From a virus (taxonomy: Duplodnaviria; Heunggongvirae; Uroviricota; Caudoviricetes): a DNA stretch of 37,894 bases. The notes beneath the pieces were generated by a model. That model saw nothing but the letters and a program-made list of their open reading frames with translations, did no database searches and had not been told where the DNA came from. Positions 4,939 through 9,822 of this stretch are shown piece after piece. How positions within the stretch are numbered: the stretch's first letter is position 1; the number at the start of each line of letters is the position of its first letter. The stretch lies in IMG/VR virus record IMGVR_UViG_2606217109_000004, one strand, 5' to 3'. Both the position numbers and the translations under genes were made by a program.

Positions 4939-5125
4939 CCCATCTCAATCCCTTCAATACCTGAAAGGAAGCATAGAGCGGGCTTCAATGTGCACAGAGT
5001 GGATTCTATCTAGGTTTAGCGCATACAGAAGATTGCCGGTAAAGGGCATGCCAAGCAAGTCGATGCTGCATATGCAAAAGAATGCGCGCTGGAAGGTATG
5101 GCGAGAACACAGGTTATCTGGCTGA
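4931..5125 (+). CDS. NinF-like small ORF, probably frameshifted or mosaic
   Basis: First ~20 aa ([21 protein letters not shown]) resemble lambda NinF, then diverge; the 3' region encodes a YbcO-like C-terminus ([23 protein letters not shown]) in another frame. Confidence 0.4.
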
Positions 5126-5144
5126 AAGAGGGGGTTATTAAGGC

Positions 5145-5507
5145 GTGAATACCTACAGCATCACATTACCCTGGCCTCCGAGCAATAATCGCTATTACCG
5201 CCATAATCGCGGGCGCACGCACGTCAGCGCAGAGGGGCAGGCATACCGCGATAACGTCGCCCGAATCATTAAAAACGCAATGCTGGATATCGGCCTGGCT
5301 ATGCCTGTGAAAATCCGCATTGAGTGCCACATGCCGGATCGCCGTCGCCGTGACCTGGATAATCTGCAAAAAGCCGCTTTTGACGCACTCACTAAAGCAG
5401 GTTTCTGGCTGGATGATGCTCAGGTCGTTGATTACCGCGTTGTGAAGATGCCTGTTACCAAAGGTGGGAGGCTGGAACTGACCATCACCGAAATGGGGAA
5501 TGAATGA
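5145..5507 (+). CDS. rusA: RusA Holliday-junction resolvase
   Basis: 120-aa translation matches E. coli DLP12 RusA ([18 protein letters not shown]...); apparent GTG start. Confidence 0.9.
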
Positions 5508-5644
5508 TGTTTGAGTTTAATATGGCAGAACTTCTTCGCCACCGCTGGGGGCGTCTGCGCTTATATCGTTTCCCCGGTTCTGTTTTGACCGATTACCGAA
5601 TACTGAAGAATTACGCCAAAACCCTGACAGGAGCAGGAGTATGA
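5504..5644 (+). CDS. ylcG: Small protein YlcG-like
   Basis: 46-codon [49 protein letters not shown] overlapping rusA stop; position matches DLP12 ylcG between rusA and quuD. Confidence 0.5.
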
Positions 5645-5729
5645 AGTCAGAGATAACAATCAACTAATACTGTTTTGTTGATTTTTGCTTGTAATTGGCG
5701 TTCTGGTCTGATTTTTGTGGAGTAAGTTG

Positions 5730-6113
5730 ATGCGTGATATTCAGATGGTTCTTGAGCGTTGGGGAGCGTGGGCGGCTAATAATCATGAAGATGTGACCTG
5801 GTCGTCCATTGCCGCCGGTTTTAAGGGATTAATTACTTCAAAAGTAAAATCTCGCCCGCAATGTTGTGACGATGACGCGATGATTATTTGCGGGTGCATG
5901 GCCCGTCTGAAAAAGAACAACAGCGATTTGCACGATTTATTAGTAGATTATTATGTAGTCGGTATGACATTCATGTCACTGGCAGGTAAGCATTGCTGCT
6001 CTGATGGTTATATCGGGAAAAGGTTACAGAAGGCTGAGGGCATAATTGAAGGGATGTTAATGGCATTAGATATCCGGTTAGAGATGGATATCGTTGTTAA
6101 TAACTCTAATTAA
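5730..6113 (+). CDS. quuD: Late-gene antiterminator Q (DLP12 QuuD-type)
   Basis: Translation [34 protein letters not shown]... matches E. coli QuuD (127 aa). Confidence 0.85.
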
Positions 6114-6146
6114 TATGCCAATTGTTTACTAAAAATTATTAAAAAT

Positions 6147-6164
6147 GGGGCGTTGCAACGCCCC
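6147..6164 (-). terminator. Candidate rho-independent terminator (perfect 18-bp palindrome) for minus-strand transcripts such as nmpC
   Basis: GGGGCGTTGCAACGCCCC, followed on the minus strand by a T-rich tract (ATTTTTAATAATTTTT). Confidence 0.45.
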
Positions 6165-6301
6165 CAAAAATAAAGGGTAATATATAACAGAAGGTTTATA
6201 TAGTTAGAAGCAAGGTTGTGCTCCTAAAGGAAGTGGCTTGAGGGAGCCACTTATATGTTGGGGAGGCAAAGCCTCCCGCAACATATCTTTTAGTAATCAA
6301 A

Positions 6302-7384
6302 TTAGAACTGGTAAACCATACCTACAGCAACGATATCATCGGTAGCAACGCCAGATGCTTTCGTGAAATCGCTCTTATCAATCAGGTTGATTTTGTAATC
6401 AACAAAAGTGGACATATTTTTGTTGAAGTAATAGGTTGCACCTACATCAATATATTCAACCAGGTCCTGATCACCCCACGCACCCAAGTCTTTTCCTTTA
6501 GATTGCAGGTAAGCAACGGACGGACGCAGACCGAAGTCGAACTGATATTGTGCAACTACTTCGAAGTTTTGTGCTTTGTTGGCAATATGGTTATTACCAA
6601 AAACAGTCATGTTCTGGGTTTCAGAATAGGTGGTAGCCAGATAGATGTTGTTCGCATCATATTTCAGACCAGCTGCCCATACTTCAGCATTTTGACCAGA
6701 TGCATTCAGGCTGTTGTTACCGTAGATAACCTGATTATTAGTGCGGTCAGATTTAGCATAGGTTGCACCTACACCGAATCCTTCATACTCATAAGTAGTG
6801 GAGAAACCGAAACCATCACCATTAGCTTCAGTTACGTCAGTGCGGTCATTTTTACCCTGATACTGAGCAGCAAAGTTCAGACCATCAACCAGACCAAAGA
6901 AGTCGTTGTTACGATAAGTTGCAACACCAGTGGTGCGACCAGTCATGAACACATCTGTTTGGGTCCAGGTATCGCCACCGAATTCTGGCAGAACGTCAGT
7001 CCACGCACCGATGTCGTATGCTACACCGTAGTTACGGCCGTAATCGATTGAGCCGTAGTCACCGAATTTCAGGCCTGCAAATGCAAGACGGGTTTTGTCT
7101 TTGGAGGAACCTTGAGATTCAGCGCGGTTGCCTTTGAATTCATATTCCCACTGACCGAAACCAGTCAGTTGATCGTTGATTTGGGTTTCACCTTTGAAGC
7201 CAAGACGGGCATAAGTAGTATCACCATCATCTGCATCATTAGAGGAGAAGTAGTGCTTAGCATTAACTTTCCCGTACAGATCCAGCTTGTTACTGTCTTT
7301 ATTATAAATTTCAGCTGCCTGAGCAGACATCGCCATCAGTACTGATGCAGCTACAGCAGAAATTGCCACTGTTAATTTTTTCAT
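6302..7384 (-). CDS. nmpC: Outer-membrane porin NmpC (OmpC/PhoE family), apparently intact
   Basis: Translation [23 protein letters not shown]|AEIYNKD... with signal peptide and C-terminal ...VYQF typical of general porins; start taken at MKKLT (7384). Confidence 0.9.
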
Positions 7385-7811
7385 CGTGAGCCCTTTTTTT
7401 GAACTATTATTAAAAAATGATGTCACTGCGCGATAAATATTCATCTAATCAATGTGATTATTTCAAGATGTAAGTTTTGGTTTCTCATTTGATTTGTGAA
7501 GTAGATCTCTATTTTTATCTGAACTTTTTCTATCGAATCCTATTCATGGCTCTTGGCTGAATAAAAATAAATCTATTAGCCAATTTATATTAATGGCTGT
7601 TATTTATAAGTGCTCTATAATTTGAAGGTTCAATTTAAATCGGCTAAAAATAACGCTGGAAATTATTTGTTGGTTATTTGTTGAGATTTGCTTATGTATT
7701 TGTAGTGGTGTTTTCAATACTCGGTAGCATTCTCGCAAATATCATTTAGTGGTTTACGTACGTAAAAAATTGGTTATGCTGTTAAGAGTGGTTACTTCGT
7801 CACACAGCTTA

Positions 7812-7843
7812 AACCCGCCGTCGAGCGGGTTTTTCCATTTTTT
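7812..7843 (+). terminator. Rho-independent terminator upstream of the lysis genes (candidate tR' of the late operon)
   Basis: Stem AACCCGC / GCGGGTT with CGTCGA loop, followed by TTTTTCCATTTTTT. Confidence 0.55.
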
Positions 7844-7955
7844 GAGTCTCGATATTAGCTGATAACCCAATACCTGAGTTATTCACTGACTCCGAGTCTG
7901 TTACGTTTCGTAGTATTCCCTCAATTTACACCCGCTTTGTCTGCGAGGTGGGGTT

Positions 7956-8171
7956 ATGAAATCCATGGATAAGTTAACAACGGGTGTCGCCTATGGCACC
8001 TCAGCAGGTAGTGCCGGGTACTGGTTTTTACAGCTGCTAGATAAAGTCACGCCCTCACAGTGGGCGGCAATTGGAGTGCTGGGTAGCCTGGTATTTGGCC
8101 TGCTGACGTACCTGACAAACCTTTATTTCAAGATTAAAGAAGATAAGCGCAAGGCTGCGAGAGGTGAATAA
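7956..8171 (+). CDS. essD: Holin (phage 21 S-type, DLP12 EssD)
   Basis: 71-aa membrane protein [26 protein letters not shown]... matches EssD; two hydrophobic segments. Confidence 0.85.
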
Positions 8172-8668
8172 TGCCTCCATCATTACGAAAAGCCGTTGCT
8201 GCTGCTATTGGTGGCGGAGCAATTGCTATAGCATCAGTGTTAATCACTGGCCCAAGTGGTAACGATGGTCTGGAAGGTGTCAGCTACATACCATACAAAG
8301 ATATTGTTGGTGTATGGACTGTATGTCACGGGCATACAGGAAAAGACATCATGCTCGGTAAAACGTATACCAAAGCAGAATGCAAAGCCCTCCTGAATAA
8401 AGACCTTGCCACGGTCGCCAGACAAATTAACCCGTACATCAAAGTCGATATACCGGAAACAATGCGCGGCGCTCTTTACTCATTCGTTTACAACGTGGGT
8501 GCTGGCAATTTCAGAACATCGACGCTTCTTCGCAAAATAAACCAGGGCGATATCAAAGGCGCATGTGATCAGCTACGTCGCTGGACATATGCTGGCGGTA
8601 AGCAATGGAAAGGTCTCATGACTCGTCGTGAGATTGAGCGTGAAGTCTGTTTGTGGGGGAAACAATGA
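8171..8668 (+). CDS. rrrD: Endolysin with N-terminal signal-anchor-release domain (T4-lysozyme fold, DLP12 RrrD)
   Basis: 165-aa ORF with Gly/Ala-rich N-terminal hydrophobic segment then lysozyme-like domain; start overlaps essD stop. Confidence 0.9.
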
Positions 8669-9123
8669 GCAGAGTAACCGCGATTATCTCCGCTCTGGTT
8701 ATCTGCATCATCGTCTGCCTGTCATTGGCTGTTAATCATTACCGTGATAACGCAATCGCCTACAAGGAGCAGCGCGATAACAAGGCCAGTGAACTGGAGA
8801 AGGCGAACGCCACCATCGCTGACATGCGGAAGCGTCAACGTGATGTAGCAGAACTCGACGCAAGATACACAAAGGAGCTTGCTGATGCTAACGCGACTAT
8901 CGAAAGTCTCCGTGCTGATGTTTCTGCTGGGCGTAAGCGCCTGCAAGTCGCCGCCACCTGTGCAAAGTCAACGACCGGAGCCAGCGGCATGGGCGATGGA
9001 GAAAGCCCAGGACTTACAGCAGATGCTGAACTCAATTATTACCGTCTCCGAAGTGGAATCGACAAGATAACCGCGCAGGTTAACTACCTGCAGGAATACA
9101 TCAGGACGCAATGCCTGAAATAA
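8665..9123 (+). CDS. rzpD: Inner-membrane spanin subunit Rz
   Basis: Translation [20 protein letters not shown]... with N-terminal transmembrane segment and coiled-coil; matches RzpD. Confidence 0.85.
8879..9070 (+). CDS. rzoD: Outer-membrane lipoprotein spanin subunit Rz1, embedded in the +1 frame of Rz
   Basis: 63-aa ORF entirely inside rzpD; signal peptide with lipobox LLGVSAC and proline-rich mature region. Confidence 0.7.
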
Positions 9124-9154
9124 TTTTTTTGCAAATCACAAAGTCCATTTAATG

Positions 9155-9210
9155 AGCCTCGCGATGCGGGGCTTTTTGCAATAAATGCGTACCGCAACGC
9201 ATGTTTTTTA
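9155..9210 (+). terminator. Tandem rho-independent terminators after the lysis cassette
   Basis: Imperfect hairpin plus T-run at 9156-9177 and hairpin ATGCGT-ACCGCA-ACGCAT followed by GTTTTTTA at 9185-9210. Confidence 0.6.
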
Positions 9211-9324
9211 CACCGAACCTGCCCCTTTGGAATGGGCCTTTGAGGATACCAGTTAGTGCTGGCGAGCCTCGGTGGGCTGGTTTCCTGTGCGGCAAAGGTT
9301 CATTTCAAAGAGTAGGTACACGCT

Positions 9325-9822
9325 ATGAAATCATTAACCCTCTTCAATCAACCAATTCGTATCGGTGAAGATGGCATGATCTGCCTCACTGATATGTGGA
9401 AAGCCAGTGGTAAAAGTGAATCTGAATCGCCTTACCACTACCTGCGAAACAAGCAGACCAAAGAGTTCTTAGCCGAGCTGGAGAAAAACCACGAATCTGT
9501 GGTTTTTACTGAGCGCGGTGTACACGGTGGAACATATGGCGGGAAGTTTGTTGCTTACGATTATGCGGCTTGGTTAAACCCCGGATTTAAATATGCAGCC
9601 TATAAAGTCCTGGATGACTACTTCACCGGAGAACTTCAGCATCGCAACAGCTTAAGTGCACAGCTCAATATGAAGTGTCATGAGTTTGATCAGAAAAAAG
9701 ATATGGCGAGCTTCTGCGGACAAGGGCTGGCGGCATGGCGCTATACGAAGCCAGTGTTGGTCGCTGAGATTAACTCCCTGGCTAACCAGCTGCAGATTAC
9801 GATCCCCGGGCTTCCGGGATGA
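9325..9822 (+). CDS. KilA-N domain protein (putative antirepressor-like or DNA-binding moron)
   Basis: 165-aa ORF whose N-terminal region resembles KilA-N domains (DNA-binding fold); own upstream region after the lysis terminators. Confidence 0.65.
   Translation: MKSLTLFNQPIRIGEDGMICLTDMWKASGKSESESPYHYLRNKQTKEFLAELEKNHESVVFTERGVHGGTYGGKFVAYDYAAWLNPGFKYAAYKVLDDYFTGELQHRNSLSAQLNMKCHEFDQKKDMASFCGQGLAAWRYTKPVLVAEINSLANQLQITIPGLPG

Follow-up and report, generated by a model that had tools for sequence, protein, structure and literature searches.

A reversed, intact nmpC porin module between Q and the probably displaced late promoter of a lambda-like prophage

What does a porin gene that is read against the phage late genes bring to a prophage when it is wedged between the antiterminator gene Q and the lysis cassette, and where does it leave the late promoter and its terminator? 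The question is raised by positions 5,730 to 7,955 of IMG/VR virus record IMGVR_UViG_2606217109_000004, a stretch of 37,894 nucleotides to which we refer, at its full length, as the window. A reading made from the letters by themselves (the sequence-only reading) had proposed that Q ends at 6113, that the holin gene begins at 7956, that an intact nmpC porin gene lies between them in antisense orientation, and that an AT-rich region of about 570 bp at 7385-7955 accommodates a leftward nmpC promoter together with a Q-dependent late promoter and its terminator. All of these gene coordinates agree with the listing of open reading frames (ORFs) and with the Pfam matches. We think it highly probable that the locus is a self-contained porin moron, which was inserted in reverse orientation into the junction of Q and the late promoter (~6090-7751) and which works in the manner set out below.

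The minus-strand ORF at 6302-7384 covers the Pfam model Porin_1 (PF00267) over its full length (1-337 of 337, E 3e-153) and scores 518 bits against the NCBIfam OmpC subfamily, for which the cutoff is 484. Its closest solved structures are OmpK37, which is the best match (E 2e-137), then OmpC, OmpK36 and PhoE. The start is the MKKLTV ATG at 7384, with an AAGGG Shine-Dalgarno sequence 6 nt upstream. The translation has a signal peptide with an AXA cleavage site (...SAQA, cleaved before AEIYNK), the loop-3 motif PEFGG and a C-terminal Phe (...VGMVYQF). The signal peptide, the PEFGG motif of the constriction loop and the C-terminal Phe have established roles in porins, the last of them in outer-membrane assembly. 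With about 60% or greater similarity to solved porins, the protein would form a trimeric 16-strand beta-barrel diffusion channel. It is 100% identical to 'OmpD' of the sequenced, inducible temperate phages PhiR34_1 and PhiR68_2, 90.1% identical to Lc of phage PA-2 and likewise to K-12 NmpC with its IS5 taken out, and 81.9% identical to NmpC of the P1-like phage P7; the closest non-phage relatives are the chromosomal OmpD-type porins of Salmonella, Citrobacter and Enterobacter (77-79% identity over the full length). The identity with PA-2 Lc and K-12 NmpC, and the synteny shared with DLP12 and 434B, bear out the name nmpC that the sequence-only reading had given, and by homology we take the gene to be the classical nmpC/lc porin of the DLP12/PA-2 type, lying between Q and S and read against the late genes.

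The porin ORF could be extended by 20 codons at its N-terminus, to a start at 7444, but we rejected this longer form: it lacks a ribosome-binding site and lies in the promoter, and all annotated homologues begin with MKK. The plus-strand ORFs at 6503-7051 and 7112-7345, which lie inside the porin gene, are antisense shadows of the porin frame and not genes. The naming of the gene in public records is uneven: RefSeq PGAP labels phage-borne nmpC 'ompC: porin OmpC' (hits H1-H25 and H153-H169), and phage records say OmpD. The 'ompC' label hides a phage-borne extra porin and the small RNA attached to it, and can mislead porin inventories and resistance or phage-receptor studies in which ompC copies are counted.

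The sequence-only reading took the gene to be intact here, in contrast to the IS5-disrupted copy of K-12. In K-12 and 434B, IS5 lies after codon 346, and excising it together with the 4-bp target duplication restores a 365-residue ORF. Alignment of the window gene to that DLP12/434B copy gave no frameshift or premature stop; the 360 codons contain no insertion sequence and end in the canonical ...VYQF. Intact nmpC appears to be the usual state in wild E. coli carriers, and the claim is correct but ordinary. At least 80% of nmpC is present in 2,503 of 5,426 complete E. coli genomes (~46%), and the genome rows that we sampled held mostly single uninterrupted coding sequences, the exceptions being K-12 derivatives (IS5) and BL21 (IS1). 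In IMG/VR, 75 loci have a complete slot next to a Q that is 100% identical, and the porin is full-length in 73 of them. Intactness is unremarkable in view of the same-Q loci and of most sampled genomes, and because so many complete genomes hold nmpC, the resemblance is homology to a very common element and not a chance pattern. The BL21 copy (NZ_CP060121.1, 543124-544983) has its porin gene in two pieces with an IS1A transposase between them, an event independent of the IS5 insertion in K-12.

The borders of the module were located by comparison with phage 933W, in which pR' overlaps the 3' end of Q and there is no porin. Homology with 933W is lost at ~6090, inside Q, at GAGATGGAT, and is regained at 7752; the end of Q in the window (~6090-6113) was set against 902-929 of the 933W locus. 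The insert thus supplies the final 7 codons of Q (IVVNNSN), and the protein is 17 residues shorter than its Sakai/933W counterpart when both are counted from the same Met. On this evidence, an ancestral Q would have received the porin module (~6090-7751) within its 3' end, and pR' would thereby have been moved 1.6 kb away. The segment that the window has in common with P7, where the gene stands in an unrelated context, extends from ~6135, just past the terminator, to ~7565, and so the core mobile unit can be delimited, from homology, as promoter, CRP site, 5' untranslated region (UTR), coding sequence, 3' UTR and terminator (~6135-7565). The traits of a moron are present: a promoter that is active in K-12 and conserved here, a terminator of its own on the minus strand (6131-6164), and sharp breaks of homology against 933W. 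In Shigella phage SfII the same slot (514-2577 of its locus) is occupied by two unrelated minus-strand genes of 194 and 340 residues, between a shortened, 103-residue Q-like gene and a homologous pR'-hairpin segment; neither has a significant Pfam match. With antisense cargo of another kind at the same site in SfII, the Q/pR' junction is therefore a recurrent slot for such cargo. The features of the locus are as follows.

5730-6113, plus strand: Q antiterminator of the QuuD/Q933 type (PF06530, 78% identity to Q933W), with the last ~7 codons, from ~6090, derived from the module.
6131-6164, minus strand: intrinsic terminator of nmpC/IpeX found by terminator scan, GGGGCGTTGCAACGCCCC and then ATTTTTAATAATTTTT.
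6138-6301, minus strand: nmpC 3' UTR of ~165 nt, with four hairpins before the terminator hairpin (fold, K-12 identity, match to IpeX).
6302-7384, minus strand: porin NmpC/Lc/'OmpD', a 360-residue precursor (Pfam Porin_1, identity to homologues).
7385-7429, minus strand: predicted nmpC 5' UTR of ~45 nt, start predicted at G 7429 (or 7431).
7401-7427, plus strand: sigma-E-like motif GAACTA-N16-TCACT, a possible promoter toward essD suggested by the motif.
7436-7466, minus strand: predicted core of the nmpC promoter, -35 TTGAAA, 19-bp spacer, -10 AATATT.
7495-7510, no strand assigned: predicted CRP site TGTGAAGTAGATCTCT (consensus scan, PA-2 annotation, P7 alignment).
7545-7745, no strand assigned: AT-rich spacer between the divergent promoters, variable among copies; the P7 counterpart ends at ~7565.
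7753-7787, plus strand: late promoter pR', by homology to 933W, with its start at A 7787.
7788-7810, plus strand: initial transcribed block GTGGTTACTTCGTCACACAGCTT, a candidate qut/pause region conserved in the window, DLP12, 933W and SfII.
7811-7843, plus strand: promoter-proximal hairpin and U-run, the candidate tR' (terminator scan, fold, conservation in 933W and SfII).
7844-7955, plus strand: lysis-operon leader of 112 nt with the essD ribosome-binding site GAGGTGGGG, 100% identical to K-12.
7956-8171, plus strand: EssD, an S21-type holin with a dual start (Met1/Met4) and the first late gene (Pfam Phage_holin_2_1, E 2e-35).

The spacer between the porin and holin genes (7385-7955) measures 571 bp, and its G+C content is 27-31% over 7400-7800 as against 41-55% in the flanks, so that the length and AT-richness first described for it agree with our figures. 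The nmpC promoter (PnmpC) was expected in this region, and work on K-12 places it there: PnmpC was lost when -199 to -1 before the start codon was deleted, and rapid amplification of 5' cDNA ends gave 'G' as the start (PMC11677980). The 199-bp stretch of K-12 is 99% identical in the window. The regulators listed for PnmpC are CRP (two sites), OmpR, IHF and MprA (PMC11677980). Our own scan found a -35 element TTGAAA at 7466-7461 and, after a 19-bp spacer, a -10 element AATATT at 7441-7436, a core that is conserved upstream of P7 nmpC. From the spacing of these elements and from the GCAGTGAC block, which is conserved with P7, we predict that transcription starts at G 7429 (or 7431) and yields a 5' UTR of ~45 nt. 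The predicted CRP site at 7495-7510 fits 8 of 10 consensus positions and is centred at about -72 from the predicted start, a class I position. GenBank record J02580 of PA-2 also has an annotated CRP site at the corresponding place (-129 to -109), and P7 carries a perfect palindrome, TGTGATTTTGATCACA, at the aligned position.

The pattern of sequence variation agrees with this map. Among 53 distinct variants of the spacer, 0-2 variable sites per 20 nt were counted in 7405-7544 and in 7765-7824, compared with 5-11 in 7545-7704; the stretch 7405-7444, around the predicted nmpC start, has 0-1. This footprint supports two functional blocks, which we would assign to PnmpC and pR', with a variable spacer between them. 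Homology with P7 fades beyond ~7565, and the stretch 7545-7745 probably holds only sites for regulators or nucleoid proteins. A 44-codon minus-strand ORF at 7604-7738, which appears as 'hypothetical protein' in several phage records, occupies the most variable part of the spacer, has no P7 counterpart and is probably no gene.

A third promoter is possible. PMC7918800 describes a cloned DLP12 lysis regulatory region as '-121 to +650', numbered after the RpoE paper that it cites. The forward primer begins at window position 7312, which puts +1 at ~7432; the numbering thus implies that the RpoE-dependent start published for the lysis operon of DLP12 corresponds to ~7432 in the window, where it would adjoin the predicted, oppositely directed nmpC start and precede pR' by 355 nt. 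The sigma-E-like motif at 7401-7427 overlaps the nmpC 5' UTR on the plus strand and is a possible counterpart of such a promoter.

The Q ORF at 5730-6113 (plus strand, 127 residues, ATG at 5730) matches Phage_antitermQ (PF06530) over its full length with an E value of 3.5e-53 and is 78% identical to Q933W, and only distantly matches the Q21 structures 6p18/6jnx (E 8e-7), which define the antitermination mechanism (bioRxiv 10.1101/651190). In a sensitive search of phage genomes with the spacer, positions 7752-7834 matched the segment just 3' of Q in hundreds of Shiga toxin (Stx) phages. In the record of 933W, the segment homologous to 7753-7834 bears annotations for pR', for qut and for a rho-independent terminator, and the base-for-base alignment includes the -35 element TTTACG (7753-7758), a 16-bp gap, the -10 element TATGCT (7775-7780), an invariant TAAGAGTGGTTAC and a CCCGC/GCGGG hairpin. 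The proposal that the spacer holds a late promoter of the Q type is thus upheld by homology, both of this segment and of Q itself.

The start of pR' could be placed to the base. Experiments on the Sakai Stx phages have located the start of pR', a cut by RNase E at +173 (between GU and AUU) and the 3' end of the StxS RNA, 258 nt downstream of that start (PMC7547250). When +1 is set at the A of TAAGAGTGG in 933W/Sakai, the +173 and +258 distances are obtained exactly, and the homologous window base is 7787. Because the homologous A reproduces both published StxS distances, the start at A 7787 should be transferable with confidence from the Stx-phage mapping. Numbered from this base, the hairpin and U-run occupy +25 to +57 and essD starts at +170. 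The start lies 1,674 bp past the Q stop, so the promoter is not adjacent to Q, a distance explained by the inserted porin module; the layout is the same in DLP12, and K-12 has the stretch 7752-7955 at 100% identity. For the lysis operon of DLP12, PMC7918800 names a Q-like factor and RpoE as regulators, with reference to Rueggeberg 2013 and 2015.

The block GTGGTTACTTCGTCACACAGCTT that follows the start has no variable sites among the 53 variants, and 933W annotates qut inside it. We take 7788-7810 as a candidate site (qut) at which a Q of this type might load and the polymerase pause. Near the start,.A...T hexamers occur only as AAGAGT (-3 to +3) and CAGCTT (+19 to +24), and +1 to +24 is invariant. 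Direct repeats TGGTT(T)A at 7750, 7771 and 7789 were considered as Q-binding subsites and dropped, since only the third is conserved in 933W. The 1986 PA-2 record (J02580) also contains a distal 'CRP binding site' (1067-1087), which maps to pR' +1 to +21, that is, window 7787-7807 (TGGTTACTTCGTCACA). This block is conserved with 933W and SfII, and the distal site is for that reason more likely to belong to the late-promoter pause/Q region than to be a porin CRP site.

In the earlier proposal the hairpin beyond the start figured as the terminator of the late promoter. The structure is there: the stem at 7811-7832 and its tail TTCCATTTTT make up the sole plus-strand terminator-like site that the terminator scan found between porin and holin genes, with a folding energy of about -12 to -14 kcal/mol (z -1.6). 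It is conserved in 933W and SfII, and the stem has 1 variable site per 20 nt among the 53 variants. The hairpin is the only candidate tR' before the lysis genes; its function as a terminator we infer, and the Stx homologue is read through at least in part. Homology with 933W stops right after the hairpin, and a 112-nt leader then leads to essD. An Rfam scan of 5000-9500 (E<=1) returned just a sub-threshold Trp_leader on the tR' hairpin (20.8 bits against 41), which reflects generic terminator resemblance; Rfam has no IpeX model. A literature search for Term-seq data on essD found nothing relevant.

The other end of the module holds a feature that the sequence-only reading had missed, as it had the insertion into Q and the read-through of the homologous Stx hairpin. 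The porin stop (6302) is followed by a 3' UTR of ~165 nt, which extends to the terminator on the minus strand (stem 6164-6147, T-run to 6131) and which folds, the terminator included, into five hairpins with a minimum free energy of -63.2 kcal/mol (z -8.8); none of 200 shuffled sequences was as stable. It is 96.5% identical to K-12 DLP12. The hairpins are kept in E. albertii and P7, with changes on both sides in 12 of 57 pairs; these compensatory changes, in five sequences only, are suggestive of the structure but no proof of it. The terminator is conserved in PA-2, DLP12, P7 and E. albertii. The small RNA IpeX, which is 167 nt long and of DLP12 origin, is processed from the phage porin transcript (PMC12197685) and is reported to repress ompC/ompF (PMC12197685, PMC5069750). 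The stretch from 6301 to ~6138 provides ~164 nt on the porin strand between the nmpC stop and the terminator, and from this matching length and the published description we place IpeX, provisionally, right after the nmpC stop. As the 3' UTR matches IpeX in position and size, an intact nmpC could add a porin to the cell and at once repress those already resident there, and the IpeX 3' UTR is the better-documented route by which the module alters host porins. On the plus strand the terminator hairpin at 6131-6164 has no T-run, and early transcription leaving Q should therefore continue into the porin gene in antisense; a regulatory effect of this transcription is speculation.

The porin gene itself is a mosaic. 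Compared with K-12 DLP12, the flanks (5600-6300 and 7050-8300) and the first third of the coding sequence (~110 codons) show 0-4 differences per 100 bp, whereas 6300-7050, the C-terminal two-thirds of the coding sequence, shows 13-31, with one breakpoint near 7050-7100 and another at the stop codon. The changes in the protein, including a length difference of 5 residues, fall at residues 182-231, 263-267, 302-312 and 335-347, in segments that are polar, Gly/Asn-rich and indel-bearing. In solved porins, segments of this kind form external loops. With one identical Q, IMG/VR holds 17 distinct porin proteins in two length classes. Such a pattern is suggestive of surface-exposed segments being exchanged by recombination, nothing unusual in a porin. 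When the upstream region and 3' UTR of the porin were compared by blastn with ~80 genome loci, including chromosomal ompD-type loci, similarity was seen only in E. coli, E. albertii and PA-2; capture of the porin from a host gene with its flanks found no support in this comparison.

Comparison with known systems sets the locus in context. The qsr' segment of DLP12 in K-12 (quuD - nmpC - essD rrrD rzpD/rzoD), found also in 434B, has the same gene order and orientation as the window; identity amounts to 99.7% in Q, 100% from pR' to the end of the essD leader, 99% in the PnmpC region and 96.5% in the 3' UTR. The window differs in its intact copy of nmpC, which is 5 residues shorter than the IS5-split gene of K-12 and 90% identical in protein sequence, and, unlike the decayed DLP12 remnant, it has a full set of lambda-like head and tail ORFs. 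In PA-2 the lc gene (protein 2, J02580) adjoins the lysis genes; its upstream region, with the annotated CRP site, is 95.5% identical over 376 nt and its 3' UTR 97%, whereas the variable surface segments are of a different allele and the essD leader carries a 16-nt insertion. In 933W and Sakai Sp5/Sp15, the -35, the -10, the start and the first 50 transcribed nucleotides, including the hairpin, are 77-78% homologous to the window. There the leader runs on to the second terminator at +258 (StxS RNA), followed, in 933W, by tRNAs and stx, whereas in the window Q and pR' are set apart by a 1.66-kb antisense module and the second terminator and StxS segment are lacking. In P7 (and also JL22 and phi456), nmpC shares with the window the promoter core, CRP site, 5' UTR block, structured 3' UTR and terminator; the P7 gene lies between odaA and ssb and, unlike the window gene, has neither a Q/pR' neighbour nor the ~190-bp AT-rich spacer. 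The signal peptide is another one (MKLKLVAV...) in the OmpD-type porins of Salmonella, Citrobacter and Enterobacter, whose upstream regions and 3' UTRs are without detectable similarity to the window. Since these chromosomal loci lack similarity in the 3' UTR, the IpeX-like 3' UTR appears, among the loci compared, to occur only in the phage-borne lineage.

The mechanism that we propose takes PnmpC activity in K-12, IpeX function and the Q-dependence of the DLP12 lysis cassette from the literature. The module would bring a sigma-70, CRP-assisted PnmpC, directed leftward from a start near 7429, the general-diffusion porin NmpC/Lc, and an IpeX-type 3' UTR with its own terminator. In a lysogen it would be transcribed independently of the repressed phage operons, and, if it is expressed in this strain as we suppose, the new porin would be added to the outer membrane while OmpC and OmpF would be lowered through IpeX. 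The result for the host would be a porin swap, with changed permeability and loss of receptors used by other phages. The insertion would have displaced the Q-dependent late promoter, which is now divergent from PnmpC and would start at 7787, 1.67 kb past Q. A polymerase leaving pR' would meet the hairpin and U-run at 7811-7843 and, to the extent that this structure terminates efficiently, would stop there unless modified by QuuD; with Q, transcription would go on into the pinholin, SAR-endolysin (signal-anchor-release) and spanin genes and the remaining late operon.

Several observations weigh against this scheme. The consensus promoter scan of 7385-7955 gave no site at a threshold of 9/12; pR' reaches just 8/12 and the two elements of PnmpC stand 19 bp apart, which puts both under the threshold, and homology and conservation were used instead for that reason. 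For a Q of this type, moreover, no consensus is defined for Q binding or pausing. In the Sakai Stx phages the homologous hairpin (+25 to +47, then U7) must be at least partly read through, because pR' transcripts reach a second terminator at 258 nt, and it is this second terminator (+230 to +258) that was mapped there as tR' and that is absent from the window. The nmpC gene of E. coli B is also reportedly called a 'quiescent' porin gene in the title of a 1998 paper by Prilipov, and an upstream region of 27% G+C could be silenced. These last two points also speak for an alternative in which the porin is intact but silent in the lysogen, a passenger whose AT-rich upstream region (27-31% G+C) is mainly a silencing platform, and to them may be added the listing of OmpR, IHF and MprA as PnmpC repressors (PMC11677980). 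In K-12, though, PnmpC gave the sole detectable read-through transcript into IS5 and was active in standard culture (PMC11677980); the promoter core is nearly invariant, and the intact ORF in 73 of the 75 same-Q loci argues for selection. We think a silent porin rather unlikely.

Doubt about the hairpin leads to another alternative, in which 7811-7843 is inefficient, being either leaky or part of the Q-loading/pause region, so that the lysis genes would be expressed constitutively at a low level and Q would only boost them. Besides the passage of Sakai pR' transcripts through the homologous hairpin, this would fit the interrupted U-run (UUUUUCCAUUUUUU), the modest folding energy and z score of the stem, and the reported effect of the DLP12 lysis genes on vesicle production without induction (PMC7918800). 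A leaky hairpin is harder to reconcile with its place in a very widespread prophage, where it alone resembles a terminator in the stretch from the promoter, constitutive in relatives, to the holin/endolysin cassette, or with the near-invariance of the stem among the 53 variants; a terminated RNA of ~50 nt could also have escaped the library and the Northern design of the Stx study. We regard inefficiency as somewhat unlikely. The remaining alternative, that the late promoter directly follows Q (6114-6301) as in lambda, with late transcription running antisense through the whole porin gene, has in its favour the canonical lambda layout of Q and then pR' given in bioRxiv 10.1101/651190. We reject it as very improbable: the scan found no plus-strand promoter-like site in 6114-6301, that stretch is the porin 3' UTR and is common to P7 in its unrelated context, and the homologue of the 933W pR' sits at 7753-7787. 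The reversed porin moron with a displaced late promoter is thus the explanation that we prefer.

The surrounding genes fit a phage of the lambda type. NinX and RusA are encoded upstream of Q. The holin gene, which begins at 7956 with an MKSM dual start and is of the S21 type, is followed by a SAR-type lysozyme gene (8171-8668), whose product carries at its N-terminus a hydrophobic segment typical of a signal-anchor-release domain, and then by the Rz spanin gene (8665-9123). In the phage 434B annotation, S71 antiholin and S68 holin are given, with ribosome-binding sites at the place equivalent to the essD leader. Further downstream, the ORFs agree in order and size with lambda-like genes for terminase, head, tail and tail fibre, and the best-matching genome is annotated likewise; the window is therefore a lambda-like prophage with a complete-looking late region. 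Directly 3' of the spanin genes there is a two-domain KilA-N/ORF11CD3 gene (9325-9822, plus strand), where the best-matching genome has an annotated Rha-family regulator.

That lambdoid phages can carry the porin gene nmpC/lc between Q and their lysis genes has been on record since the 1980s. An intact antisense nmpC at this place is thus already known, and IpeX, PnmpC and the Q control of the DLP12 lysis genes are covered in published work. The finding carries little weight as a discovery, and its practical value is for annotation; transfer from the Stx-phage mapping now gives the late promoter of this widespread type of prophage a start at single-base resolution, at 7787. Should the hairpin prove leaky, the Q-nmpC-IpeX-pR'-lysis block might act in lysogens as one envelope-remodelling unit, which would combine the porin swap with a low, stress-tunable leak of lysis proteins, an idea that we put forward very tentatively and consider doubtful. 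If it is true, the sigma-E-like promoter at ~7401-7432 could give the stress input, and the block would be more than a passenger beside a tightly shut late operon.

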